Counted from the stretch's first letter, positions 11,223-27,687 are shown. The stretch is 64,000 nucleotides of DNA from Candidatus Margulisiibacteriota bacterium (GCA_018823125.1 JAHJIW010000010.1:93396-157395), one strand, 5' to 3'. Numbers and translations are program-made. The notes: generated from the letters alone by a model not told the origin.

Positions 11223-14200
11223 TCAATAATAATCTTGCAGCGCTTTTACTTTAAATCCTTTTTTCTTAGTGGCTTCTAAACCACTGACCGTAGCCTGCGC
11301 TCCGGATAATGTAGTAATGATCGGAACCATGTGCATAATTGCCCCGGAACGAATTTTAGTTTCATCAACTTTGGTCCTTTTATCCCCCGGCGTATTTACA
11401 ATAATATGCACTTCATTATTTTTTATCAAATCCAGCACATCCGGACGCCCTTCCCCAATTTTAGCCACCACTTCGATTTCTAATCCATTTTTGCGCAGGA
11501 CTTCGCCGGTACCTTCGGTGGTAACAATCTTATAGCCCAAGGCATCAAAGCTTTTTGCAATGCTGACGATCTTTCTTTTATCCCGGTCATTAACCGAAAT
11601 GAAAACTTTGCCTTCCAAGGGAAGTTTTTGGCCGGCACCAATCTGAGCTTTAATATAAGCTACCCCCAGATCCGGGTCAATTCCCATGACTTCTCCAGTA
11701 GATTTCATTTCCGGACCTAAAATGGGGTCTACTCCCGGAAAACGGTTGAACGGAAAGACTGCTTCTTTAACCGAAAAGTGCTCGGGAACAACTTCTTTAT
11801 CCACTCCGAGCTCTTTCAACGTTTTTCCCAGCATGACTTTAGTTGCGATATTGGCCCACGAAACCCCAGTTGCTTTAGCAATAAAAGGAACGGTTCGCGA
11901 AGCACGCGGGTTTACTTCGAGAACATATAATTTTGAACCCTTGACCGCATATTGAATATTCATCAAACCTTTTACCTTTAATTCTTTAGCCAAAGCATGG
12001 GTAGCTTTGCGGATTTCGTTTAATACAGTTTTACTGAGAGAAAAAGTTGGGATGGCACAGGCTGAATCACCGGAATGGATTCCGGCTTCTTCGATATGCT
12101 CCATAATTCCACAAATCATCGAATCTTCACCATCCGCCACGCAATCAACGTCAACCTCAATTGCATCTTCCAAAAACTTATCAACTAAGATCGGTCGATC
12201 AGGTGAGGCCACCACTGCTTTTTGCATATATTCTTCCAGGTCAACTTCATCGTAAACAATCATCATCGCCCGGCCGCCCAATACGTAAGAAGGCCGCACC
12301 ACTACCGGATAGCCAATCCGGTCGGCAACCGTTTTTGCTTCTTCAAAAGAAATGGCGGTATCATTTTCGGGCTGAGTTAGTTTTAATTTTTTCAATAACT
12401 TTTGAAAACGTTTGCGGTCTTCAGCCATATCAATGGAATCAACTGAGGTTCCCAAAATGGGAACTCCCGCTTCCTGTAAGGAATGCGCCAAATTAAGCGG
12501 GGTTTGTCCGCCAAACTGAACAATTACTCCTTCCGGTTTTTCGGCTTCTACAATGGTTAATACGTCTTCGCGGGTTAGCGGCTCGAAGTACAAACGGTCG
12601 GAAGTATCAAAGTCGGTGGATACCGTTTCGGGATTTGAATTTACCATGATCGCTTCCAGTCCTTCTTCTTTAATCGCGTAAGAGGCATGGACACAGCAGT
12701 AATCAAATTCAATTCCCTGACCAATACGATTTGGTCCACCGCCTAAAACCATAATTTTTCGTTTGTTGCTTGCCCGGCACTCATTTTTTCCCTTATCAAA
12801 AGTCGAATAAAAATATGGTTTTTCGGGACTAACCTCTCCGCCGCAAGTATCAACCAGCTTGTACCCGGCGGTAATGTCTTTTTCTTTTCTTAGGTTATAT
12901 ACTTCAATTTCGCTGGACTTGGTCAAATGCGCAATCTGAATATCAGAAAAGCCCATCCCCTTAGCTTCGGCCAGGAGTTTTAAGGGTAATTCTTTTAGTT
13001 TGTATTTAACCACTTTTCCCTCCATTTCAACGATCTGGCGCATTTGATCCACAAACCAGACATCAATCTTAGAATGATCATAGATTTCCTGATTGGTCAT
13101 ACCTTTCTTGACTGCATAGCGCACCCAGAAAATCCGGTCCGGACCCGGAATGGTTAATTTTTGCTTAATTAATTCAATATCTTCAGAAAGTTCAGGTGGA
13201 ACATCGTTGCCATCGGCACCCAAGCCATAACGTTTATATTCAAGCGAACGAATTCCTTTTTGTAAGGATTCTTTAAAGGTACGGCCAATCGACATCGCCT
13301 CACCGACCGCCTTCATGGAAGTGGTTAAAGTTTGGTCCGCGCCCGGAAACTTTTCAAAGGCAAAGCGGCATACCTTAAACACGCAGTAATCAACCGTAGG
13401 CTCAAAGAAAGTATAAGTTTTGCCGGTAACCTGGTTGACTATTTCATCTAAAGATAATCCAATCGCCAGTTTTGCGGCGACCCGCGCAATCGGAAAACCG
13501 GTGGCCTTGGAAGCCAAAGCCGATGATCGGGATACCCGCGGATTTATTTCAATAACTCTAATTTCCCCGTTAACCGGACTGACAGCAAATTGAATATTGG
13601 TTCCACCGCCGTTAATTCCGGTGGCCCGGATAATTTTTTTACACCAGTTTTCCAGGTTCATAAATTCTTCGGTAGTTAAACTTTGCGCCGGAGCAACTAC
13701 AATTGAATCACCGGTATGAATTCCCATGGCATCCACATTTTCCATCGAAGTAACAATGATCACGTTATCTTTACAGTCGCGAATAACTTCAAATTCAACC
13801 TCTTTCCATCCTAAAACCGATTCTTCAACCAAAACCTGTTTTAAGGGTGAAACTTCCAGCGCATATTCCACGGCTTTCTTTAATTCTTCAACGTTATATA
13901 CGCAGGCACCACCCGCTCCACCCATGGTAAAGGCCGGCCGCAAAATCAGCGGAAAACCCAGTTTTTCTCCGAGCGCCATGCCTTCATCAACTGAAGTGGC
14001 AATGCCGGATTCCGGCACGCCTAAACCAATACTTTTCATAGTATCTTTAAATTTTTGGCGGTCTTCCGCACGTTCAATGGCTTCAGCATCGGCGCCAATA
14101 ACTTCTACGCCGTATTTCTTTAAAATTCCGGCACGGGATAAAAAGAAGCCCATATTTAATCCGGTTTGTCCGCCTAAAGTTGAAAGCAGTGCATCCGGTT

Positions 14201-14444
14201 TTTCTTTTGCAATGATCTTTTCGATAAAGATCGGATCCAGCGGTTCGATGTAGGTACGATCCGCCATTCCCGGATCGGTCATGATGGTGGCCGGATTAGA
14301 ATTAACCAGCACCGTCTCATACCCCTCCTCCCGCAAAGCCTTACAGGCTTGCGACCCCGAATAATCAAACTCACAGGCCTGCCCAATTACAATTGGTCCG
14401 GAACTTATGATTAATATCTTTTTAATGTCGGTTCGTTTTGGCAT
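11223..14444 (-). CDS. carB: carbamoyl-phosphate synthase large subunit
   Basis: MPKRTDIKKILI, GQACEFDYSG, duplicated ATP-grasp domains, C-terminal MGS domain. Confidence 0.97.
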   Translation of the reverse strand: MPKRTDIKKILIISSGPIVIGQACEFDYSGSQACKALREEGYETVLVNSNPATIMTDPGMADRTYIEPLDPIFIEKIIAKEKPDALLSTLGGQTGLNMGFFLSRAGILKKYGVEVIGADAEAIERAEDRQKFKDTMKSIGLGVPESGIATSVDEGMALGEKLGFPLILRPAFTMGGAGGACVYNVEELKKAVEYALEVSPLKQVLVEESVLGWKEVEFEVIRDCKDNVIIVTSMENVDAMGIHTGDSIVVAPAQSLTTEEFMNLENWCKKIIRATGINGGGTNIQFAVSPVNGEIRVIEINPRVSRSSALASKATGFPIARVAAKLAIGLSLDEIVNQVTGKTYTFFEPTVDYCVFKVCRFAFEKFPGADQTLTTSMKAVGEAMSIGRTFKESLQKGIRSLEYKRYGLGADGNDVPPELSEDIELIKQKLTIPGPDRIFWVRYAVKKGMTNQEIYDHSKIDVWFVDQMRQIVEMEGKVVKYKLKELPLKLLAEAKGMGFSDIQIAHLTKSSEIEVYNLRKEKDITAGYKLVDTCGGEVSPEKPYFYSTFDKGKNECRASNKRKIMVLGGGPNRIGQGIEFDYCCVHASYAIKEEGLEAIMVNSNPETVSTDFDTSDRLYFEPLTREDVLTIVEAEKPEGVIVQFGGQTPLNLAHSLQEAGVPILGTSVDSIDMAEDRKRFQKLLKKLKLTQPENDTAISFEEAKTVADRIGYPVVVRPSYVLGGRAMMIVYDEVDLEEYMQKAVVASPDRPILVDKFLEDAIEVDVDCVADGEDSMICGIMEHIEEAGIHSGDSACAIPTFSLSKTVLNEIRKATHALAKELKVKGLMNIQYAVKGSKLYVLEVNPRASRTVPFIAKATGVSWANIATKVMLGKTLKELGVDKEVVPEHFSVKEAVFPFNRFPGVDPILGPEMKSTGEVMGIDPDLGVAYIKAQIGAGQKLPLEGKVFISVNDRDKRKIVSIAKSFDALGYKIVTTEGTGEVLRKNGLEIEVVAKIGEGRPDVLDLIKNNEVHIIVNTPGDKRTKVDETKIRSGAIMHMVPIITTLSGAQATVSGLEATKKKGFKVKALQDYY

Positions 14445-14457
14445 TTTTTATTCCCCC

Positions 14458-15474
14458 CTATACATATTTATAATTAGGATCCAGTTTTGAGCGCTCATCA
14501 ATCGGGAAATACAGGGTGCCTACGCATTGCCCGTCTTTGGTTTGAAATTTTTCAATAGTTTTATCATTTAAATTTTCATGGACAACCTTGACCTTAGTTG
14601 ATACCTGATCAACGCCAAACGAGTGATTCTGCATCGAGATCTCTCCGTTGCCGGTTTTCGGATCAACCACCGGATAATTTACCCCGTGATGACCAACTTT
14701 CATTTTAGAAACCGTGCACCCTAATGCCAGCGCCAAAACACAGGCACCGTTTTGAATTCCGTAAATTGGTATTTCTCCAATTAATTTTTTTACTTCTTCA
14801 ACCGTTTTGGTTAGCCTGGTCGGATCTCCTGGTCCGGAAGAAATCACAACCTGGGAAGGTTTTTTAGCTAATATATCTTCAGCGGTAGTATTATATGAAA
14901 CGACCGCCGCATCCGGATATTTCGCCAGCGTACTATTATTGACTCCCAAATTAATGATTATGGTTTTTGCCTTTGCATCCTGGGACTTAATCTTTAAATG
15001 CTGTACTTCTTTGACTAAATCCGGCACTGCATAGGCTTTGGCTTTTTTTACCAGGCAGTCTTTATCAAAATCGGTAGTAGAAACTATTCCCCGCATCTCC
15101 CCGTTATCGCGGATATATACGGTCACCGCCTGGGTATCAATGCCTTCAATCCCAATCACATTATTTTTTTTCATAAAGTCAGCCAGTGATTCCTTGGCCT
15201 GCCAGTTGCTGTAAATTCTGCTGTTTTCTTTTACAATTAAAGCCGACGCATGGGTTTTATTGGATTCATTACAACGATCATTAATCCCGTAATTTCCAAT
15301 CAATGGGTAACCCATCGACACCAGCTTTCCCCGGTAGGCCGGATCAGTTAATATCTCCTGATAGCCCACTACTTGCGTATTAAATACCACTTCACCCGCC
15401 ACTTCCCCTTCGGCCCCAAAAGAAGTTCCCTTAAAAGTTGTTCCATCTTCTAAAACTAAAATCGCTTTTTTCAT
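14458..15474 (-). CDS. carA: carbamoyl-phosphate synthase small subunit homologue with a degenerate glutaminase site
   Basis: N-terminal domain AILVLEDG, GEVVFNT, GYQEILTDP, YPLIGNYG; canonical GICLGHQ reads GIQNGAC and QYHPE reads LYFPI; start placed at ATG 15474 after AGGGGG. Confidence 0.88.
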   Translation of the reverse strand: MKKAILVLEDGTTFKGTSFGAEGEVAGEVVFNTQVVGYQEILTDPAYRGKLVSMGYPLIGNYGINDRCNESNKTHASALIVKENSRIYSNWQAKESLADFMKKNNVIGIEGIDTQAVTVYIRDNGEMRGIVSTTDFDKDCLVKKAKAYAVPDLVKEVQHLKIKSQDAKAKTIIINLGVNNSTLAKYPDAAVVSYNTTAEDILAKKPSQVVISSGPGDPTRLTKTVEEVKKLIGEIPIYGIQNGACVLALALGCTVSKMKVGHHGVNYPVVDPKTGNGEISMQNHSFGVDQVSTKVKVVHENLNDKTIEKFQTKDGQCVGTLYFPIDERSKLDPNYKYV

Positions 15475-15504: not shown

Positions 15505-15532
15505 AAAAAAAAAGACGTCCTGCGACGTCTTT
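15505..15532 (-). terminator. intrinsic terminator upstream of carA
   Basis: AAAGACGTC-GCAG-GACGTCTTT stem with a run of 9 U, ending about 30 nt before the carA ATG. Confidence 0.8.
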
Positions 15533-15551
15533 GTCAATCTCTAAACCGTTA
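15524..15551 (-). promoter_or_regulatory. candidate ANTAR-binding twin-hairpin RNA site
   Basis: P2 is GAC-AAAGAC-GUC (hexaloop with A1/G4, C-G closing pair) and overlaps the terminator 5' arm; weak P1 UA-ACGGUU-UA lies 6 nt upstream. Confidence 0.6.
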
Positions 15552-15579
15552 TTTTACCAAATTTTTAACCTTAAGTCAA
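15551..15579 (-). promoter_or_regulatory. sigma70 promoter of carAB
   Basis: TTGACT-N17-TAAAAT. Confidence 0.65.
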
Positions 15580-16112: not shown

Positions 16113-16922
16113 TTAGCCCCGTTTGTGTCTTGTAACATCCCTTACCGTAGCAATAAAAGCCTTGGGTCGCCCAAAAGAATCCTTGATTAAGGCGGCATTC
16201 AATTCCCCGAGAAAGCGTGACCCGTCTTTTCTAAGCAGCGTATAGGTTAAGTTACGCACCAACCCCTCCTCTAAGGTTCTTTCCAGATTTTTTTTAGCTC
16301 TGGCATGGTCCTCTGGAGCAATAAGATCAAAAGCACTTCTACCAATCAGCTCATCAGCACTGCTATAACCATGTAATTTATAGGTTTGCGCAGAAACCTC
16401 AATCACGTGTCCCTCCAGATCAGTAACCGTAATCGCTTCCGGAGAGGTTTTAAGCATGGAGCGATATAATTCTTCAGATTCGGATAACACTTTTTCCGCC
16501 TGCTTGCGCTCTGTAATGTCCATTAACGATAAAAAATAACCAATGATATTTCCTTGTTCGTCTTTGCGGGCTAAAGTAGAAATACTAAAATCAATTATAT
16601 TCCCGCTTTTGGTAACCAGGGTAGATTCCCGGTTTTTCACAAAGCCTTTTTTAAGGGTTTCTTTTTGTACTTCTTCAATCACCCGGGTTTCCGGAAAACA
16701 TTCCGCCAGACTTTGACCAATAATAACGTCGGGGGAATAGCCGAGCAGTTCGGGCAGAGTTTCGTCTACATCTAAAATTACCCCCAGCGGATTAACGTAA
16801 GCCATCGGAATCGGCAGGAATTTCCACATGTCACGAATGTAGCTTTCCAGATCGTAAACATCCTGCTCATATTTTGGGGGCCGATGACGATTATTAAATC
16901 CAGGAAACTTTATATTCATCAT
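16113..16922 (-). CDS. tandem PAS-PAC protein without an output domain
   Basis: Two PAS/PAC repeats (LGYSPDVIIGQSL...LMDITERKQAE; LHGYSSADELIGRS...VRDVTRHK); start uncertain because it overlaps the upstream gene. Confidence 0.75.
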   Translation of the reverse strand: MMNIKFPGFNNRHRPPKYEQDVYDLESYIRDMWKFLPIPMAYVNPLGVILDVDETLPELLGYSPDVIIGQSLAECFPETRVIEEVQKETLKKGFVKNRESTLVTKSGNIIDFSISTLARKDEQGNIIGYFLSLMDITERKQAEKVLSESEELYRSMLKTSPEAITVTDLEGHVIEVSAQTYKLHGYSSADELIGRSAFDLIAPEDHARAKKNLERTLEEGLVRNLTYTLLRKDGSRFLGELNAALIKDSFGRPKAFIATVRDVTRHKRG

Positions 16923-17490
16923 ACGGATCTCCTCGATAAGAACATTTAATTTGCTGACTGCTTACTTCCTTATCCGGAAGTGCAAATTGAATAATGCGGG
17001 AAAAATAACCTTCGATATATTTACAAAAAACCGGCAAAAACTTAATGCCCTCCAACCGGATGTTAACATACTTTTTCTCTTCACTATAATCTGCAATCAC
17101 GAGCTCACCGGCAGAATAGTGTTTGGGCCAATAGAGAGGCGCGGACTTGACAGTCTGCTCTAAGCTGATGAAATAACGCATTAGAATTTTTACCATAAAA
17201 GAAAACTTGGGCGCCATATTGCCCATCGCCTTCACTGCGGCATCATCCCAATTAAAAGTATCCTTAATCACCATTAAGGAAAGACCTCGCAACCCCATCG
17301 GATACCACCCCATAGCCTTAACCTTTTCAAATTCGATCGGATATCCGAGCTGCTTTAAGTTTTCTTCTACTTTTTTTAAGCCTTCTTCCCCATACTTAAT
17401 TTTAAGGTAGGTCGCATCCGTCTGGAAAACTACCCCGCGGACCTCACCCTTCATTTTCATTATATCGTCGGCTTCTTTTTTGGTAAGCAT
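16894..17490 (-). CDS. hypothetical protein, V4R / DUF2378-like
   Basis: GEVRGVVF, WYPMG, YWPKHYSAGEL, YIEGYF, KCSYRGDPYDEYKVSW resembles V4R-type ligand-binding folds; GAGG RBS before ATG 17490. Confidence 0.55.
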   Translation of the reverse strand: MLTKKEADDIMKMKGEVRGVVFQTDATYLKIKYGEEGLKKVEENLKQLGYPIEFEKVKAMGWYPMGLRGLSLMVIKDTFNWDDAAVKAMGNMAPKFSFMVKILMRYFISLEQTVKSAPLYWPKHYSAGELVIADYSEEKKYVNIRLEGIKFLPVFCKYIEGYFSRIIQFALPDKEVSSQQIKCSYRGDPYDEYKVSWI

Positions 17491-17568
17491 AGCAGACACC
17501 TCTATAGCAGCAAAATTATCACATATAACAATTATGTCAAGGATAAAAGCGAGAAAAACCTATTAAAT

Positions 17569-19142
<1,574 letters not shown>

Positions 19143-19154
19143 AAACTTTCCTCC

Positions 19155-20144
19155 TTAGCGTTTGATAAGCTCGTTAAATTTCTTTAGGCGGTTATACTCC
19201 ACCAGCGTCACTAAAGCTTTACTTTCGGTTTTAATGCCACATTCTTCGCAGGCCGCCACCGGATTAAGACCTCCCGGAACTACCAGCCCAACTTTTTCTA
19301 TCCCAACCGGCATACCTAAAACCGGCTCTTCTTCCTTACCTATATATAAGGCCCCGCCAAAACCAGCGGCTTCCGCTTTTTCTAACACTGACTCGACATC
19401 CTGCTTGGATACCGCTGGAATCTCGCGCAGTCCGGCTAATATTTTCCCCGAACCCTTAACGGCATCTCTGACACTGGTCATTTTACTTCTGATAAAAATT
19501 TCATGGGGATCCAAGGTTGACCCCGAATATCTAATTAAATCCGTAAAACGCAACGGTTTTCCCTTTTCGATCTGTAAAATTCCACCAAACTTAGAGTCCA
19601 GCGGAATCGAATGTTTTAATAATATGCCATTCAAGTTAATCGTGCATAAGGAGCCAAAACAAATTTTTCCCTGCGGAACAACCATGTCCCCTACTTCTTC
19701 GCCGGCTTCCGCCACCAATACCCGGTCGCCCATCCCCAATTTTTTCTTAAAAACATCCCGCATGATTTTCAAAGCGCCTTTAAAATCATTTTTATTAAAT
19801 AAAGAAATATTTAATATTACTTTCCCACTTTTTGTATTGAGATCGAAATCCATTAAATAAGCTTTGGATTCAATGCGCGAGCTAACCAAACCTACTTTTT
19901 CTGATACCCAAGCATTAGCTAGTTCTTCTTTTCCCATTTTAGTGATGGTTCTCCCTTCTTTCCAGGTTGACTCAGTTAGCTTTTGTTCATCCATAATTTT
20001 TAAGTGATAGCGCACCGCACGCTCCGTTAAATCGATCCCAAATTCCTTTAGTCGATCAGAAATATCCTTAGACCCCACCGGCTCACTCGACTCAGCGATA
20101 ATTCTTAAAATTGCGCTGGTTTTTCTTTCCATGTCTGCTGTCAT
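19155..20144 (-). CDS. nrpR: NrpR family nitrogen repressor (wHTH + one NrpR/DUF128 domain)
   Basis: ERAVRYHLKIMDE HTH, GRTITKMGKEEL, CTINLNGILLKHSIP, GGLNPVAA; start placed at ATG 20144 after AAGGAG. Confidence 0.88.
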   Translation of the reverse strand: MTADMERKTSAILRIIAESSEPVGSKDISDRLKEFGIDLTERAVRYHLKIMDEQKLTESTWKEGRTITKMGKEELANAWVSEKVGLVSSRIESKAYLMDFDLNTKSGKVILNISLFNKNDFKGALKIMRDVFKKKLGMGDRVLVAEAGEEVGDMVVPQGKICFGSLCTINLNGILLKHSIPLDSKFGGILQIEKGKPLRFTDLIRYSGSTLDPHEIFIRSKMTSVRDAVKGSGKILAGLREIPAVSKQDVESVLEKAEAAGFGGALYIGKEEEPVLGMPVGIEKVGLVVPGGLNPVAACEECGIKTESKALVTLVEYNRLKKFNELIKR

Positions 20145-20153
20145 AAATTCTCC

Positions 20154-20210
20154 TTGACTTACGGCAATCACTTACCGTATAATCATAACTAAGTTTACTG
20201 CAATTGTAAA
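20154..20210. promoter_or_regulatory. overlapping divergent nrpR/gdhA promoters with a TACGG-N10-CCGTA inverted repeat
   Basis: Plus strand TTGACT(20154)-N18-TATAAT(20178); minus strand TTTACA(20210)-N17-TATGAT(20187); inverted repeat at 20160-20179. Confidence 0.65.
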
Positions 20211-20266
20211 GAAATTATTTTTTTCGAGAGGAGGATGCCGTAAAGATCATAAGTTCCAAGTGATAA

Positions 20267-21610
<1,344 letters not shown>

Positions 21611-21631
21611 AAAGTTAACAGGCGCAAAACC

Positions 21632-21671
21632 AAAGAAAAAAGCCTTCGAGAAATCGAAGGCTTTTTCTTTT
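21632..21671. terminator. bidirectional intrinsic terminator after gdhA
   Basis: A-tract, AGCCTTCGA-GAAA-TCGAAGGCT, T-tract, between convergent genes. Confidence 0.9.
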
Positions 21672-21691
21672 ACTCTTGATCCGCGATTTTT

Positions 21692-22120
21692 TTATGAACT
21701 TATCCAAACCACATAGGCTGAATAGAAAAGATAAATGCTAACCAGGATAAGAATAATAGAATATAATTTATAGGCCCCAACTACAAACTCATCCATCTGA
21801 AGCACTGATTTGCCTGCGCTTTTTGACAGCCAATCCAAAAAATTCGGGAAAAATAAATAAAGCAAACCGAAAAACAATAAAACCAGCCAGAAAGGATGCA
21901 GCAAGCCCAGTTCAGAAGACCTGAAAGCCAATAGCGCTATCCAACCCGCCAGAGCAATAAATATAATACCCACAACATATTTATAGGGTTTCAGCAATTC
22001 ATCAAGAGAAAAAATCACCTTATTCCAAAACGCGCAAACTTGCGTTAAATACCTAGGGGCAAACAAAAGCGTTACACCAAAAACCAAAATAAAGATCCCG
22101 GCTGCTAACAAAAAAATCAT
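21692..22120 (-). CDS. hypothetical membrane protein with two similar halves
   Basis: Hydrophobic; FAPRYL...SLDELL and FFPNFL...QMDEFV repeats; AAAGGAGG RBS. Confidence 0.7.
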   Translation of the reverse strand: MIFLLAAGIFILVFGVTLLFAPRYLTQVCAFWNKVIFSLDELLKPYKYVVGIIFIALAGWIALLAFRSSELGLLHPFWLVLLFFGLLYLFFPNFLDWLSKSAGKSVLQMDEFVVGAYKLYSIILILVSIYLFYSAYVVWISS

Positions 22121-22213
22121 CGCCTATTCCTCCTTTATATTATTTAGGATTCTTAGCAAATTATGCCCCCTTTATTTTAATTGTCAAGGCTAAAAAATCA
22201 TCTTCGGATATTT

Positions 22214-23557
22214 TTACAGCGCTTCCAAATACTTATCAATTTCCCAGGGGGTAATTTGCATACGGTAGTCATCAAATTCGGCTAATTTAGCATCACGGAA
22301 ATTATCAAAGGTGTGTTTACCCAGTGCTTCCATGATTACTTCGTCTTTTTCCAATTCTTCCACGGCGCGTTTGATCGAAAATGGCAGCATGCCTACATTT
22401 AATTCGCTTAGCCGTGCCGCATCTAGCTTATATACATCTTCTTCTACCGGAGCAGGAGGCTGCATACCTTTCTTAATGCCGTCTAATCCGGTTTTTAGCA
22501 TCGCGGCAAAAGCCAGATATGGATTACAAGACGGATCCGGGCAACGCAACTCTAACCTTGTTGATTGCTCTCTTCCCGGTGAATATCTTGGGATTCGAAT
22601 TAATGCCGAGCGATTAACCTGCCCCCAACAAACGTATACCGGCGCCTCGTAGCCTGAAACTAAACGCTTGTAAGAGTTAACCGTGGGCGCCACAATCGCC
22701 GTTAAAGCTCGAGCGTGTGCTAACTGTCCAGCTAAATAGTTATGCGCGATTCCCGAAAGCTTATATTTATCGTTAGCGTCAAAGAAAACATTTTTGCCGT
22801 TTTTATCAAACAAAGATTGGTGTACGTGCATCCCCGACCCCGCCTGACCATATAACGGTTTTGGCATGAAAGAAGCATACAGATCGTGTTGAGCCGCAAT
22901 CGATTTAATGACGTATTTTAATGTAATAGTATTATCGGCTGAAGAAAGCGCATCCGAATACCGAACATCAATTTCATGCTGTCCGGGTCCAACTTCGTGG
23001 TGACTCATCTCAGATATCATATTCATATTTTCCAGAGCTAATACAATATCTTCGCGGACTTCAGAAGCTAAATCGCGGGCCGTATAATCAAAATATCCCC
23101 CGATGTCATGCGGTACAGTAGTAATATCACCATTTTGCTTTTTAAACAGATAAAACTCTACTTCAGGACCAGTCATGAATTTATATCCCATCGCTTCCGC
23201 TTCTTTGACTACCCTTTTCAAGATAGAGCGCGGATCCCCTTCAAAAGGTTCACCATCTGGAGTGTGGACATCACAAATAAAACGCGCAGATTTTTTTTCG
23301 GCAGTAGTCCACGGAATAACCCGATAAGTATCCGGGTCGGGGAATAAAATCATGTCAGATTCGCAAATACGCACAAAACCTTGAATGCTGGAACCATCAA
23401 ACCAGATCCCTTTATCTAAAACATCTTCCAGTCTTTCAATCGGGATACTGACACTTTTCATGGCTCCTAAAATATCGATAAACTGCAGAAAAATAAATTT
23501 AATACCATCGGCGCGGGCTTGTTCCAATACTTTTTTCTTAGATAAATTTAATGACAC
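22214..23557 (-). CDS. glnA: glutamine synthetase type I
   Basis: FDGSSIQG, HHEVGPGQHE, FMPKP, GSGMHVH, NSYKRL, RLELRCPDP; GTG start at 23557 after GGAGG. Confidence 0.96.
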   Translation of the reverse strand: MSLNLSKKKVLEQARADGIKFIFLQFIDILGAMKSVSIPIERLEDVLDKGIWFDGSSIQGFVRICESDMILFPDPDTYRVIPWTTAEKKSARFICDVHTPDGEPFEGDPRSILKRVVKEAEAMGYKFMTGPEVEFYLFKKQNGDITTVPHDIGGYFDYTARDLASEVREDIVLALENMNMISEMSHHEVGPGQHEIDVRYSDALSSADNTITLKYVIKSIAAQHDLYASFMPKPLYGQAGSGMHVHQSLFDKNGKNVFFDANDKYKLSGIAHNYLAGQLAHARALTAIVAPTVNSYKRLVSGYEAPVYVCWGQVNRSALIRIPRYSPGREQSTRLELRCPDPSCNPYLAFAAMLKTGLDGIKKGMQPPAPVEEDVYKLDAARLSELNVGMLPFSIKRAVEELEKDEVIMEALGKHTFDNFRDAKLAEFDDYRMQITPWEIDKYLEAL

Positions 23558-23587
23558 GGGTCGACCTCCGTTATTTAAGATTATCCG

Positions 23588-23616
23588 ATTATACAGGAGA
23601 GACAAACGCTAAGCAA
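23588..23616 (-). promoter_or_regulatory. sigma70 promoter of glnA
   Basis: TTGCTT-N17-TATAAT. Confidence 0.6.
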
Positions 23617-23626
23617 GATAGCCTAA

Positions 23627-25120
23627 TTACCGCGATTCTTTAATTGCAGTTATATCGCGGCCATATATATAAACCGAATTGTCTTCAACATAAGGCGAAA
23701 AATCAAACGAAAAAATTCGCTTTGCACATCGATGCTCAACGCCTTTTTTGGCTTTTCTTTCACTGAGCACCGCATCAATTATTTCTTGAATATTTGACGG
23801 AAGAATTTCATCAGCTTTAAATAAATCATTTTTGCTAATAAATTCGACGGTGAAAGGATTCATATACAGCACATTGCCATCCTTATCTACTTTCATAACA
23901 ATATTGGGGTTTTCCTCTGGAAACACAGAAAGTGCTTTAATTTTTTCATCTACCAGTTTGCGCTCGGTAATATCCTGCACTACGCCCAGCATGCGAACCG
24001 CCTTACCTTGTTTATCCCGAAAAATCTTTCCGGTCTCCGAAACCCAGTGACTTTTACCATCCGGCCAAACAATACGGTGTTCGATGGCATATTTTTTATC
24101 TTTTTCGATCGCGTTATTGACCGCATCGACAACCTGCTTACGATCGTCAGGATGAACACAGGCTAAAAATGCTTCGTAAGTCTTTTTAAATTCACCCGGA
24201 TTAAACCCAAACATCGGCTCAATAGTATCCGACCAGATTAAAGTATTGTTAACAATATCCCAATCCCAGGTACCAATATTGGCCACCGCTTGCGCCAGAG
24301 AAAGCCTTTCCTGATTATCCCTTACCTCTTTTTCTGCCTGTTTGCGCTCGGTTAGATCTCTCAAAATTGCCATATCTCCCACAATCTTTCCATCTTCAAT
24401 GATAGGAACGGCCTTAACCTCTACAGATACCCGCGACCCATCTTTTCTGATCATTTCTAACTCATACGGTGGAATATGTTGACCGCGCATGCGAGCAAAG
24501 AAATTTTTTAATGCAATGGCCTTATTCTTTACGTCCAAGATCGGGGCAAACAACACATTCATCCCTTCCAATTCTTCTTTGGGATAGCCCGATTCTTTGG
24601 TTAACTGTTCGTTAATGAGAATTATTTTGCCGAGCCGACTAAAAATCACAATGGGATCACCGGCTTTATCAATGAGATTGCGGTATTTTTCTTCTTTCTT
24701 TAATAAAGCACCTTCAACCTGTTTACGCTCGGTAACGTCGCGGGCTATCCCGACAAGCACTTTTTGTCCTTCGAGCTCAACCACCTTCCCGTTTACCTCA
24801 ATTAGAATCCTTTTGTGATCTTTTCTAATTAATTCGATTTCCTCCGGACCAAAGCTGCCGGTAGTTGTAAATTTTGCAAAAATCATGGCGATTTTTGGTA
24901 ACTGCTCAACTGGAATAATTTTAGTCATGTCCTGATAAGATAACCCTACCAATTCACTCCGCTTATAGCCGGTCATACTTTCAGCGTAATCATTAAACTC
25001 GATTAACTTGCCATTCAAATCGGTCATATAAATTGCATCTTGGGCAGATTCCACAATGGCTTCCAGTTCAATTAGACGACTATGCATCTTTTTATATTCA
25101 TTTTCCGGAATTTCTATCAT
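23627..25120 (-). CDS. multi-PAS protein without an output domain
   Basis: Three PAS-PAC units (RDVTERKQ, RDLTERKQ, QDITERK) plus a terminal PAS-like segment (FPEENPN); no kinase or cyclase motifs. Confidence 0.8.
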   Translation of the reverse strand: MIEIPENEYKKMHSRLIELEAIVESAQDAIYMTDLNGKLIEFNDYAESMTGYKRSELVGLSYQDMTKIIPVEQLPKIAMIFAKFTTTGSFGPEEIELIRKDHKRILIEVNGKVVELEGQKVLVGIARDVTERKQVEGALLKKEEKYRNLIDKAGDPIVIFSRLGKIILINEQLTKESGYPKEELEGMNVLFAPILDVKNKAIALKNFFARMRGQHIPPYELEMIRKDGSRVSVEVKAVPIIEDGKIVGDMAILRDLTERKQAEKEVRDNQERLSLAQAVANIGTWDWDIVNNTLIWSDTIEPMFGFNPGEFKKTYEAFLACVHPDDRKQVVDAVNNAIEKDKKYAIEHRIVWPDGKSHWVSETGKIFRDKQGKAVRMLGVVQDITERKLVDEKIKALSVFPEENPNIVMKVDKDGNVLYMNPFTVEFISKNDLFKADEILPSNIQEIIDAVLSERKAKKGVEHRCAKRIFSFDFSPYVEDNSVYIYGRDITAIKESR

Positions 25121-25147: not shown

Positions 25148-26545
25148 TCACTTAGGCTCCTTTAGGTTTTTAGGTATTGTAAAAATAAATTTACTGCCCT
25201 TCCCATCTCGGCTTTCCACCCAAATTTTTCCCTTATGAAGGTCAATAATATCCTTCGCAATCGGGAGGCCCAGTCCCGTGCCCTCCTTTTGTTCTGCAGT
25301 AATCCGCTCAAATTTATCAAATATTTTTTCAGAATATTCCTGAGGAATTCCCGGACCGCTATCCCAAATCTCAAAACGCACTTCGCCGGCTTTATCTTCA
25401 AGCTTGATCGTAATAGCGCCTTTATCGGGAGTATATTTTATGGCATTATCCAAAAGATTAATTATAACTTCAGTCAGCATGTCTTTATCAGCGAAAATTG
25501 AAATTATATCGGAAGGAGTATCTTTCTTTAGAGAAATTTGCTTCTTCTTAAACTCATTTTTGTTTGTCATCAATATTTCTTCAACAAGATGTCGTATATC
25601 CACGCTTTCTTTTTTCAGCTCGATCTTGCCTGATTCTATCTTGGAAATGTCTAACATATTTGAAACCAAGCGGGCTAGCCGGTCGACATTTTTTTCAATT
25701 GATTTGAGACGGTCTCGCCGTTTTGATCCAATTTTACCCACAGCCCCATCAAGAAGAAGCTCAAGGTACTGTTTGCTGGTTGCCAAGGGACTTAAAAATT
25801 CATGGGAAACATTGGCTACAAAGTCTGATTTTCGCTTATCCATCTCTTTCAACTTCTGATTGACTATTGTCAGTTCCGCCGTACGTTCTTTTACTAATTC
25901 TTCAAGGCGTAGCCGGTATTTCATTAATTCTTCATAAAGCTTGTCTTTTTCTTCCTCCGTCCGCTTGCGCTCGGTGACGTCCGTATCCGCCCCCCTATAT
26001 CCAAGAAGGTTCCCTTTTACATCCAGGATGGGACAACCGCCTGTTTCTAAAAAAACAATGCTGCCATTTTTGTGGACATTGGAATTAATAAATCTTATAA
26101 AGCTTCCCTTCTTCGCAAAAATCTCAAAGATGGCTTTTCTTAATTCCTCTCTTGTCTCAGGGGTAAATAGATCAAAACAATGTTTTTTTCCTACAAGTTC
26201 TTCAGGTTTATAGCCGAGTATTTTTTCTACCACCGGGCTTGCATATGTATATACCGCATTGGCATCCACTTCCCATATCCACTCACCAGCGTTTTCAGCT
26301 ACCTGCTTGAATCGCTCCTCGCTTTTGCGCTGCGCTTCCTCCGCCTGCTTGAGCTCGGAAATATTCTGTAATAACTCCTGCGAGCTAATTTCGAGCGAAC
26401 GCTCAAGCAAACCGCGGTCAATATCTGCTTGTTGGTAAGCATTATTAATTACTGCAACAAGCTCGCTAATTTCCTTGGGCACCAGGTCCACACCGTCATA
26501 AATTTTCTTTAACTGACGTTTTAATAAGCTATGCAGCTCTCCCAT
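25148..26545 (-). CDS. PAS domain sensor histidine kinase
   Basis: PAS-PAC, H-box NVSHEF, N-box NLLDNAIKY, DSGPGI, GTGLGL. Confidence 0.92.
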   Translation of the reverse strand: MGELHSLLKRQLKKIYDGVDLVPKEISELVAVINNAYQQADIDRGLLERSLEISSQELLQNISELKQAEEAQRKSEERFKQVAENAGEWIWEVDANAVYTYASPVVEKILGYKPEELVGKKHCFDLFTPETREELRKAIFEIFAKKGSFIRFINSNVHKNGSIVFLETGGCPILDVKGNLLGYRGADTDVTERKRTEEEKDKLYEELMKYRLRLEELVKERTAELTIVNQKLKEMDKRKSDFVANVSHEFLSPLATSKQYLELLLDGAVGKIGSKRRDRLKSIEKNVDRLARLVSNMLDISKIESGKIELKKESVDIRHLVEEILMTNKNEFKKKQISLKKDTPSDIISIFADKDMLTEVIINLLDNAIKYTPDKGAITIKLEDKAGEVRFEIWDSGPGIPQEYSEKIFDKFERITAEQKEGTGLGLPIAKDIIDLHKGKIWVESRDGKGSKFIFTIPKNLKEPK

Positions 26546-26547
26546 AA

Positions 26548-27687
26548 TTATTCCTCCGCCAACACAGTGATCGTCATGGTCTGGTTGTGCAATTCACATT
26601 TTGCCTGCGGCTTAAAAGGAGCGATCTCCCCGTAAGAATAAAATCCGATCAGGGCCGGGCGTTTACCCAACACCTCACGCACCCCTTCCACCTCTTCCTC
26701 CACTCTCTGGGCCAAGACCAGTTTTCTCCCAACACAGCTGATCAGAATAGCCAGTTCCGCCTCAAAACTCCCGAGGATTTCCCGGCTTACTTTAGCAGCA
26801 CTGAGTGCCCCGTCAATTAAATGGTCAAAATTAGCTTTCATCAGACGAGCGTGAGCCCCTTCCGGGACATCACCGGCAAAGGTCATGCTATCTTCCTGCT
26901 CGCTAACCGATAAAATAGTCCGAACTACAGCTCGATCTTGGTCATTAACGCGGACCTCCAGCGGATAGAGCAGCCCGGTCGCTGGCAGGCCTTTGGCCTG
27001 ATCCCCAAGATATTGTTTGTATAAGCCTAGCGCTGATTTGCCATCTAATTCATACAGGATATTTCCTTTTGACTTTGTGACCTGGCGAAATGGCCCAAAC
27101 GGATCCCAGCCGCCCAAAGAACCATAACCCACTTTTAGATCTTTGCCATAAAACCCAAGAACAGCAACAACCTTTTGTTGCGGCACCTGATCAAAAAATA
27201 CATATGTTTCTTTAAAATTAGCACCATCACCAGCCACCCCCCCGGTAATAGCAACATTTGCCGGTAAATTCTCTGTCAGTCCTCTCACTAATTCACTCCC
27301 ATTCACCACCACACCATCAGAAAGGACAAACAAATGGACCAGACCTTTATGCTCAATAGACTTGGCCAATTTCACCCCTGCCTCATGGCTGTTTTTAACT
27401 TCAGCCATCCCAACTTGAGCGCCCTGGATCTTGGTAGATCCAAAACTTATTGCTGATATAGCAAGATGGTCATCAGTTACTCGTGTATCAAAGATCTCCC
27501 CGGCAGTTGAACAACCCATCAGTTTAGCCTTGGGATAAGCCTTTTTTATCTCCGCCAAGCCCTGTTGTTTTTTCAGCAGCTCTCTCTCGCAAAAGATCAG
27601 CACTAATTGAGCCTTATCTCCCAAACCACCAAGCGGGCCATTTAACCAACCTTTTCTCTCGTTCCAAATATTTTGTTCTATTTTCAC
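26548..27687 (-). CDS. FIST N/C domain sensory protein
   Basis: GCSTAGEI, GGVAGDG, NILYELDGKSAL, ISCVGRKLVL, GFYSYGEI, HNQTMT. Confidence 0.92.
   Translation of the reverse strand: MKIEQNIWNERKGWLNGPLGGLGDKAQLVLIFCERELLKKQQGLAEIKKAYPKAKLMGCSTAGEIFDTRVTDDHLAISAISFGSTKIQGAQVGMAEVKNSHEAGVKLAKSIEHKGLVHLFVLSDGVVVNGSELVRGLTENLPANVAITGGVAGDGANFKETYVFFDQVPQQKVVAVLGFYGKDLKVGYGSLGGWDPFGPFRQVTKSKGNILYELDGKSALGLYKQYLGDQAKGLPATGLLYPLEVRVNDQDRAVVRTILSVSEQEDSMTFAGDVPEGAHARLMKANFDHLIDGALSAAKVSREILGSFEAELAILISCVGRKLVLAQRVEEEVEGVREVLGKRPALIGFYSYGEIAPFKPQAKCELHNQTMTITVLAEE

Follow-up and report, generated by a model that had tools for sequence, protein, structure and literature searches.

A conserved carbamoyl-phosphate synthase paralogue with a putative pseudo-glutaminase subunit in Candidatus Margulisiibacteriota

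What can the small subunit of a carbamoyl-phosphate synthase (CPS) contribute once its glutaminase residues are gone? The question is raised by a carA-like gene, here called carA*, in a 64,000-nucleotide stretch of DNA from a groundwater bacterium of Candidatus Margulisiibacteriota (GCA_018823125.1, JAHJIW010000010.1:93396-157395); this whole stretch is called the window below. carA* and the carB gene that follows it, carB*, are two separate open reading frames (ORFs), 13 nt apart from stop to start, and not one fused CPS polypeptide (Table 1). An earlier note on the window had taken the gene for an ordinary carA whose product has lost the glutaminase triad, and the enzyme for a probable ammonia-only CPS. 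Our own reading, which we consider probable, is that carA*-carB* encodes a conditionally expressed ammonia-using CPS, in which CarA* would be a structural partner and a part of a rebuilt ammonia path.

By domain content and predicted fold CarA* belongs with the CPS small subunits. Residues 6-131 cover the full CPSase_sm_chain profile (PF00988, 6.5e-49), in line with the N-terminal domain that had been described as kept, and a C-terminal class-I glutamine amidotransferase (GATase) domain follows (PF00117, 2.1e-22). Among solved structures, E. coli CarA matches best (3.8e-61), followed by the N-terminal part of human CPS1 (1e-41). The AlphaFold2 model of CarA* has a mean predicted local distance difference test (pLDDT) of 91.6 and a predicted template modelling score (pTM) of 0.91; in Foldseek it reaches a template modelling (TM) score of 0.90 to E. 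coli CarA (1jdb/1a9x chain B) and 0.85 to human CPS1. With 325.9 bits CarA* passes the cut-off of 307.35 of TIGR01368, the equivalog for EC 6.3.5.5, and proteins of the CarA* type are labelled "glutamine-hydrolyzing" in the databases. Judged by the active-site residues, this name is contradicted.

The residues in question were read from an alignment of the window protein with E. coli CarA (from NC_000913) and 117 database homologues. The E. coli motif GICLGHQ is GIQNGAC in CarA* (C269Q, L270N, H272A, Q273C), and QGHPE, which is QYHPE in most bacteria, is LYFPI (Q351L, H353F, E355I). The triad Cys269/His353/Glu355 of E. coli CarA is therefore Q/F/I, and the two motif readings of the earlier note, as well as the loss of the triad, are borne out. 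The SSGPGDP loop (G241, G243, D244, P245) is kept, as had been noted too, and so is QNH at positions 310-312, within QNH(S)F. Cys269 and His353 of E. coli CPS are essential for glutamine hydrolysis (PMC6245113). Such replacements suggest that CarA* has no glutaminase activity and that it is a pseudo-glutaminase amidotransferase subunit of a paralogous CPS.

These changes are not peculiar to one sequence. A protein search gave 88 further cluster representatives with 61-77% identity to CarA*, which, where named, come from Candidatus Margulisiibacteriota, Saganbacteria or WOR-1; a gap in identity separates this clade from the next proteins (at most 52%). Among the 86 full-length representatives, from which residue counts were taken, Q269 is found in 86, N270 in 84, A272 in 85 and C273 in 81 (the others have I in four cases and G in one). 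Position 353 is F, Y or S and position 355 is I, V or L. Because the substitutions are fixed in the clade and the identical CarA* protein is encoded on nine contigs from several assemblies, the loss of the triad is neither chance nor sequencing error. New and invariant in CarA* are Q35, S313, D356, R358, K360 and L361. S47, which is replaced in 70 of the 86 clade members, and Q273, also replaced, reportedly contact glutamine through their side chains in the E. coli CarA structures of Thoden and Holden.

Conservation was also compared between the two halves of the protein. Clade members share a mean pairwise identity of 0.73 in the N-domain and 0.70 in the GATase-like domain, compared with 0.83 and 0.81 among canonical CarAs. 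When the clade is set against canonical CarAs, identity is 60% in the N-domain and 39% in the GATase-like domain. Values that are similar within the clade and unequal against canonical CarAs indicate that the dead domain went through one sharp change and that purifying selection has acted on it ever since.

The large subunit, which had been described as intact, is so. CarB* scores 1624 bits on NF003671, is 54% identical to E. coli CarB, and has in Pfam two ATP-grasp domains, the oligomerisation domain and the MGS-like allosteric domain. Each of the 21 catalytic residues in the two ATP-grasp sites is conserved at 100%. Also kept are the residues of the carbamate tunnel (I18, I20, A23, E25, E383, G575, E577, E604, M911, E916) and of the ornithine and nucleotide sites (E783, D791, E892, T977, T1042, and K993 in six of seven). 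Going by its residues, CarB* looks like a working CPS. It is important to note that E. coli CarB alone synthesises carbamoyl phosphate from NH3 (PMC6245113).

CarB* also has a place of its own among CarBs. In a neighbour-joining tree it groups with the CarBs of a sister family found in Omnitrophota, Planctomycetia, Sumerlaeota and Thermodesulfobacteriota, in which each CarB is paired with a triad-less CarA that reads GI(S/G/A)(L/T)GH(E/Q)...QYYPASPG and has G243E. The joint clade stands apart from canonical CarBs, including the canonical copy that lies on the carB* contig of locus L013. At three sister loci, the triad-less CarA and CarB are followed by genes that by eye resemble purF and the ATP-pyrophosphatase part of guaA.

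Where do the two CPS types differ, apart from the triad? CarB* was compared with 48 canonical CarBs in E. coli numbering. Six sites that are invariant or nearly so in the canonical proteins are uniformly different in CarB*, namely G14S, C232T, D258T, R265E, P360C and A386S; positions 174, 391 and 798 differ as well and are left off the list since E. coli itself departs there from the canonical consensus. C232T and P360C are common to CarB* and the sister clade, whose residue at 265 is V. In CarA*, alpha P360 and alpha H361 are invariantly K and L; alpha S35 has become Q, and alpha M36 V or I. The segment alpha P360/alpha H361/beta R265 is reportedly the piece of tunnel wall that was removed in the "perforation" mutant of Kim and Raushel (2004). 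Alpha 293 is G, A or S in 47 of the 48 canonical CarAs, V or M in 79 of the 86 clade members and V in six of eight sister members, and beta 232 is C in 48 of 48 canonical CarBs and T in CarB* and the sister clade. In E. coli, beta C232 is part of the triangular gate A314-A251-C232 that ends the ammonia tunnel (PMC8674909), and human CPS1 keeps this gate (PMC4655335). Gln318 of human CPS1, equivalent to alpha 293, blocks the ancestral tunnel, and in E. coli CPS mutations that block or perforate the tunnel abolish the use of glutamine and leave that of NH3 (PMC4655335). With changes at beta 232 and 265 and at alpha 35, 36, 293, 360 and 361, the differences between the two CPS types concentrate, as far as residues tell, on the ammonia path, and they do so on both sides of the subunit interface.

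Is this the only CPS of its hosts? A scan with the clade profile, covering one genome per GTDB species, found carA* in 16 genomes; the pairing of carA* with carB* is kept at all clade loci, and carB is the next gene wherever the contig continues past carA*. Canonical carA (GICLGHQ / QYHPE) is also found in four of the 16, in three of them on the same contig. More specifically, loci L003 and L228 each carry on one contig canonical carA, the N-terminal half of carB, an ANTAR gene, carA* and carB*, and the contig of L013/L233 has canonical carA, carB, one ORF, carA* and carB*; in the metagenome-assembled genome (MAG) JBDRMQ01, canonical carA and carA* are on two different contigs. The complete curated WOR-1 genome MEUD01000001 (1.67 Mb) has canonical carAB and no match to the clade profile. 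Since carA* stands beside canonical carA in four of 16 genomes and a WOR-1 genome has the canonical enzyme alone, carA*B* is an accessory second CPS in this phylum. What had been taken for the organism's ordinary CarA gone dead is thus the product of a separate paralogous operon, carA*-carB*.

The window itself shows carA*B* only. A tblastn search of its 64 kb with a canonical Margulisiibacteriota CarA found no second carA and matched only carA*, and a further scan of clade genomes for canonical carA (query P0100) is a weak test only. When contigs of the three metagenomes that hold the window were compared with the canonical carAB of L013 and L003, they gave only short conserved fragments from multiple organisms, which are uninformative. 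The canonical CarA candidates P0117, P0101 and P0114, checked for the window's own sample, all come from other samples.

Some carB genes of these relatives are split. In the canonical CPS of several Margulisiibacteriota (L003 2357-3985; L228 490-2079; L290-L296), carA is followed by only the N-terminal half of carB (about 544 aa), the gene order being amt-glnK-glnA-gltB-gltD-carA-carB(N); the gene for the C-terminal half must lie at another place. In a Saganbacteria MAG (L007/L226, JAPLLA010000016.1, 11044-14253), carB* lies in three ORFs of 470, 411 and 210 aa, which reflect either assembly frameshift errors or genuine decay in one lineage.

Triad-less CarAs are found in other groups as well. 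CarAs without Cys269, and mostly also without His353, occur in Erysipelotrichaceae, Oscillospiraceae and Syntrophales. (Loci L015-L022, L068 and L234-L247 comprise the sister family and the Syntrophales form; the Syntrophales CarB was left off the tree.) The Erysipelotrichaceae form has C269G and E, D or Q for His353, and includes proteins of Amedibacillus dolichus DSM 3991 and Longicatena caecimuris DSM 29481. Canonical carA lies on the same contig as the triad-less gene at L234, L262, L265 and L267. The L. caecimuris genes run pyrB, pyrC, triad-less carA, carB, pyrK, pyrD, pyrF, pyrE, canonical carA, carB (L267 2623-14291). A triad-less CPS can therefore occupy the slot of a pyrimidine operon that supplies carbamoyl phosphate, and this position gives independent support to the view that triad-less enzymes still make this compound. 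The CarBs of the triad-less Firmicutes lineages fall into separate clades of the neighbour-joining tree, are without C232T, and keep R265 in five of eight cases. In gut Erysipelotrichaceae (L262, L265, L267) canonical carAB directly follows pyrE and triad-less carA-carB is within the pyrimidine operon, as it also is at L254; both CarA copies are annotated as glutamine-hydrolysing. The CarAs of Methanocorpusculum, also matched by the clade profile, were rejected as triad-less members: Cys269 is kept, and His353 and Glu355 mostly are.

How would carA*B* be controlled? Immediately upstream, in the window and in 15 of the 16 clade genomes, lies a gene for an ANTAR-domain protein. The first 80 or so amino acids of this protein match nothing in Pfam; a coiled coil and then the ANTAR domain follow. 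In the window the spacer between this gene and carA* is 107 nt. A promoter-like element directly follows the ANTAR stop codon and stands at the same place in relatives (TTGA..N17..T(G)nTATAAT); a GC-rich hairpin with a U-run comes about 15-25 nt after the -10 element and before the carA* ribosome-binding site, AAGGGGG, which precedes the start codon ATG 15474. This layout of promoter, hairpin with U-run and ribosome-binding site is the same in 11 of 11 leaders. A longer version of carA* starting at TTG 15537 was rejected, as that codon falls within the leader. When the hairpin is aligned over 11 loci, pairing holds in 96% of cells, with compensatory changes at two pairs; three of 500 shuffles reach this value. 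A terminator between a promoter and its gene is a hallmark of control by attenuation or antitermination. The ANTAR protein is a putative antiterminator of the carA*B* leader, and this leader may be an undescribed type of ANTAR target. carA* is a distinct, anciently diverged paralogue that has a co-evolved CarB and an ANTAR/terminator control to itself.

Taken together, we propose the following course of events. From bicarbonate and ATP, CarB* would make carboxyphosphate, which NH3 would turn into carbamate and a second ATP into carbamoyl phosphate; the nitrogen would come from free ammonia and not from glutamine. CarA* would be kept as the obligatory structural partner of CarB*, and together with a co-evolved helix of CarB* it would form a rebuilt ammonia-tunnel region leading external NH3 to the carboxyphosphate site. 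The operon would be conditionally on: transcription from the promoter would meet the 5' terminator hairpin, and the ANTAR protein encoded upstream would relieve termination. The switch probably tracks nitrogen status, and when ammonium is plentiful carbamoyl phosphate could be made without spending glutamine or the ATP of glutamine synthetase. CarA*B* would then be expressed alongside a glutamine-dependent CPS, of the kind present in the four related genomes. That NH3 is the substrate, by which route it enters, that antitermination operates and what triggers it physiologically are points that we infer. If this is true, the sparing of glutamine and ATP by direct use of NH3 would be plausible, as a conjecture, for an energy-limited groundwater anaerobe supplied with ammonium.

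A wider proposal is more tentative, and we would put it forward as possible rather than likely. CPSs that use only ammonia, in the manner of CPS I, would have evolved in several bacterial lineages, and a dedicated or ligand-gated intake port for external NH3/NH4+ would have been built from the dead domain and the co-evolved CarB helix in the Saganbacteria clade and the sister group, giving a physiologically useful affinity for ammonia and an ANTAR-switched, ATP-saving alternative to the glutamine-dependent CPS. In this count the Saganbacteria clade and the sister group are one lineage, and Erysipelotrichaceae, Oscillospiraceae and Syntrophales have separate forms; independence is supported by the tree only for the two Firmicutes groups.

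Several observations weigh against an ammonia-using CPS under antitermination control. The pocket positions G241, G243, Q310, N311, H312 and F/Y314 are kept, so that the pocket may still bind something. A solvent "entry port" for NH3 in CarA*B* is a conjecture drawn from residues. The assignment of alpha P360, alpha H361 and beta R265 to the tunnel wall is putative. The CarB tree, of 73 CarBs, is midpoint-rooted and carries no support values. In the short leader neither a second conserved hairpin nor a dual-hexaloop ANTAR target is evident, Rfam has no match for it, and none of the RNA runs searched contained carA*. Moreover, E. coli CPS requires very high ammonia (PMC6245113).

The retained pocket leads to the alternative that we would rank first, unlikely as it seems: the dead domain could be mainly a ligand sensor that binds glutamine or another small molecule, does not hydrolyse it and allosterically tunes an NH3-using CarB*. 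This is compatible with the ammonia-using CPS proposed here and adds to it rather than excluding it. Purifying selection on the domain agrees with a sensor, as do the kept pocket residues and the new invariant charged residues D356, E357, R358 and K360 beside the pocket. However, S47 and Q273, the presumed glutamine contacts, are replaced, G313 has become S, no ligand can be named, and the conservation could equally reflect constraints of the interface or the tunnel. It is quite improbable that CarA* has instead re-invented an amidohydrolase site, built for example from Cys273 and His312, and releases NH3 from glutamine or another amide. Although Cys273 is present in 81 of 86 members, one helical turn from the old nucleophile, and H312 is invariant, position 273 is off the nucleophile elbow and is I or G in five otherwise normal members, genome locus L011 among them; there is no acid/base pair at 353/355, and tunnel-lining residues downstream are altered too. 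A rescue of the glutaminase by the shifted Cys, which the earlier note had named as a way to refute its reading, is unlikely on the same grounds: 273 is not always Cys, and His and Glu are missing at 353 and 355.

The rewritten tunnel could also mean that CarA*B* is not a CPS in vivo and admits another nucleophile or makes another acyl-phosphate. The change of the gate residue C232 to T, the altered tunnel wall and the lack of linked argF or pyrB at the Saganbacteria loci point this way. Yet no departure from the canonical residues is seen at either phosphorylation site, in the carbamate tunnel or in the allosteric domain, the sister operons adjoin the purF- and guaA-like genes (by eye), and the Firmicutes analogue is within a pyr operon, which leaves this reading a very small chance, slighter still than that of the re-invented site. 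Least credible of all is a decaying, non-functional duplicate beside a working canonical carA. The earlier note had named such a copy as a further possible refutation, and one half of it holds, since an intact carA does stand alongside in four of the 16 relatives, and the fragmented carB* of L007/L226 would fit as well. The other half does not: the GATase-like domain is as conserved as the N-domain, the triad residues are replaced in 86 of 86 members, the window and nearly all relatives have intact ORFs, CarB* is intact and co-evolved, and promoter, leader and ribosome-binding site are conserved. A pseudogene reading of carA* was rejected on these conservation data.

The ammonia-using CPS that we favour can be set against known systems. 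CarA*B* resembles E. coli CarAB in its two subunits, its carA-carB operon, the CarA fold, and the catalytic, carbamate-tunnel and allosteric residues of CarB. It differs in the missing triad, in alpha 35, 36, 293 and 358-361 and beta 232 and 265, in a shorter, rewritten C-terminus of CarA*, and in having the ANTAR and leader-terminator layout where E. coli has a promoter/repressor system. Vertebrate CPS I likewise retains a dead class-I GATase domain (in CarA*, dead by its residues only) of similar fold, and has a bulky residue at the site equivalent to alpha G293. In contrast to CarA*B*, it is a single polypeptide of about 1500 aa, requires N-acetylglutamate and lacks, of the triad, the Cys alone (Ser in human); CarA*B* has two subunits, has lost all three triad residues and is of independent bacterial origin. 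By analogy CPS I is the closest functional counterpart, whereas by descent and architecture CarA*B* is a two-subunit paralogue of bacterial CarAB and stands outside the CPS I lineage. In the engineered E. coli tunnel mutants (alpha G359F/Y, and alpha P360A/alpha H361A/beta R265A, the latter being the reported residues of the triple mutant) the same or neighbouring residues were changed that are naturally changed in CarA*B*; those are laboratory constructs with an active glutaminase.

Firmicutes have duplicate CPSs, an arginine-specific CarAB and a pyrimidine-specific PyrAA/PyrAB, and the Bacillus pair are both described as glutamine-dependent. As there, some Saganbacteria genomes have two CPS operons under different regulation, and the pyr-operon copy of L. 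caecimuris is triad-less; Saganbacteria carA*B*, unlike the Firmicutes duplicates, is unlinked to arg or pyr genes. As in the ANTAR systems AmiR, NasR and EutV, an ANTAR gene adjoins a nitrogen-related operon with an intrinsic terminator in its leader, but the carA*B* ANTAR protein has no receiver or NIT domain, and the leader is very short and without an obvious dual hexaloop.

Ammonia-specific CPS is treated as a speciality of the vertebrate urea cycle, and reviews hold that bacterial CPSs do not run on free ammonia under physiological conditions. According to a 2018 review, glutamine dependence holds for all bacterial CPSases (PMC6245113), and in the full-text literature, subscription literature being outside this scope, we found no description of a bacterial triad-less CarA. 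If the proposal is true, a conserved triad-less family with matching gate changes would stand as a natural equivalent of CPS I among prokaryotes and would offer a natural experiment in turning an internal ammonia tunnel into an intake from outside. The "glutamine-hydrolyzing" names and the metabolic reconstructions derived from them are probably wrong for this clade, and the same annotation error is probable for the proteins of Omnitrophota, Planctomycetia and gut Erysipelotrichaceae. This would be of interest to enzymologists and for the reconstruction of nitrogen metabolism in uncultured phyla. The cultured L. caecimuris and A. dolichus strains make the idea testable.

Table 1. Features of the carA*B* locus and its surroundings in the window
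Feature	Position	Strand	Remarks
carA*, CPS small-subunit paralogue, 338 aa	14458-15474	-	CarA fold; triad replaced by Q/F/I; C-terminal motif PIDER(G/S)KL
carB*, full-length CPS large-subunit paralogue	11223-14444	-	NF003671 and Pfam domains
Leader hairpin and U-run	15505-15532	-	AAAGACGTC-GCAG-GACGTCTTT, then T6 more; intrinsic-terminator-like
Promoter-like element of carA*B*	15551-15579	-	TTGACT 15579-15574, 17-nt spacer, TAAAAT 15556-15551; by eye
ANTAR-domain protein, 142 aa	15582-16010	-	PF03861 1.7e-19; ANTAR at residues 85-137
PAS protein	16113-16922	-	
ORF without Pfam match, 201 aa	16894-17499	-	Between glnK and the PAS gene
glnK	17569-17913	-	
amt	17922-19142	-	
nrpR homologue	19155-20171	-	PF01995 8.5e-84 and winged-helix domain
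gdhA (NADP-dependent glutamate dehydrogenase)	20282-21610	+	
glnA	22214-23605	-	
Multi-PAS protein	23627-25120	-	
Histidine kinase	25148-26545	-	
FIST-domain protein	26548-27687	-	

In the window carA*B* sits in a nitrogen cluster with glnA, gdhA, an NrpR homologue, amt and glnK, and a single-domain nadE of 246 aa is also within the window. The genes from 16113 to 23605 are context and are not conserved together with the module. The neighbours amt, glnK, gdhA and nadE are present as the earlier note had listed them, but the "free-ammonia lifestyle" that it saw in them was over-read: the window has glnA, so glutamine is made, and a glutamine-free lifestyle is ruled out. No gltB-sized ORF was found within the 64 kb; the nitrogen cluster here has gdhA, and the relatives that bear canonical carA have glutamate synthase (GOGAT, gltBD) instead. 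The ORF without Pfam match overlaps the PAS ORF by 29 nt and is called in public assemblies as a 198-aa gene. NrpR is a nitrogen repressor best known from methanogenic archaea; here the gene of a homologue lies directly upstream of amt-glnK in a bacterium. Directly upstream of glnA are the genes of the multi-PAS protein, the histidine kinase and the FIST-domain protein, a group that may be a nitrogen-sensing signalling set.

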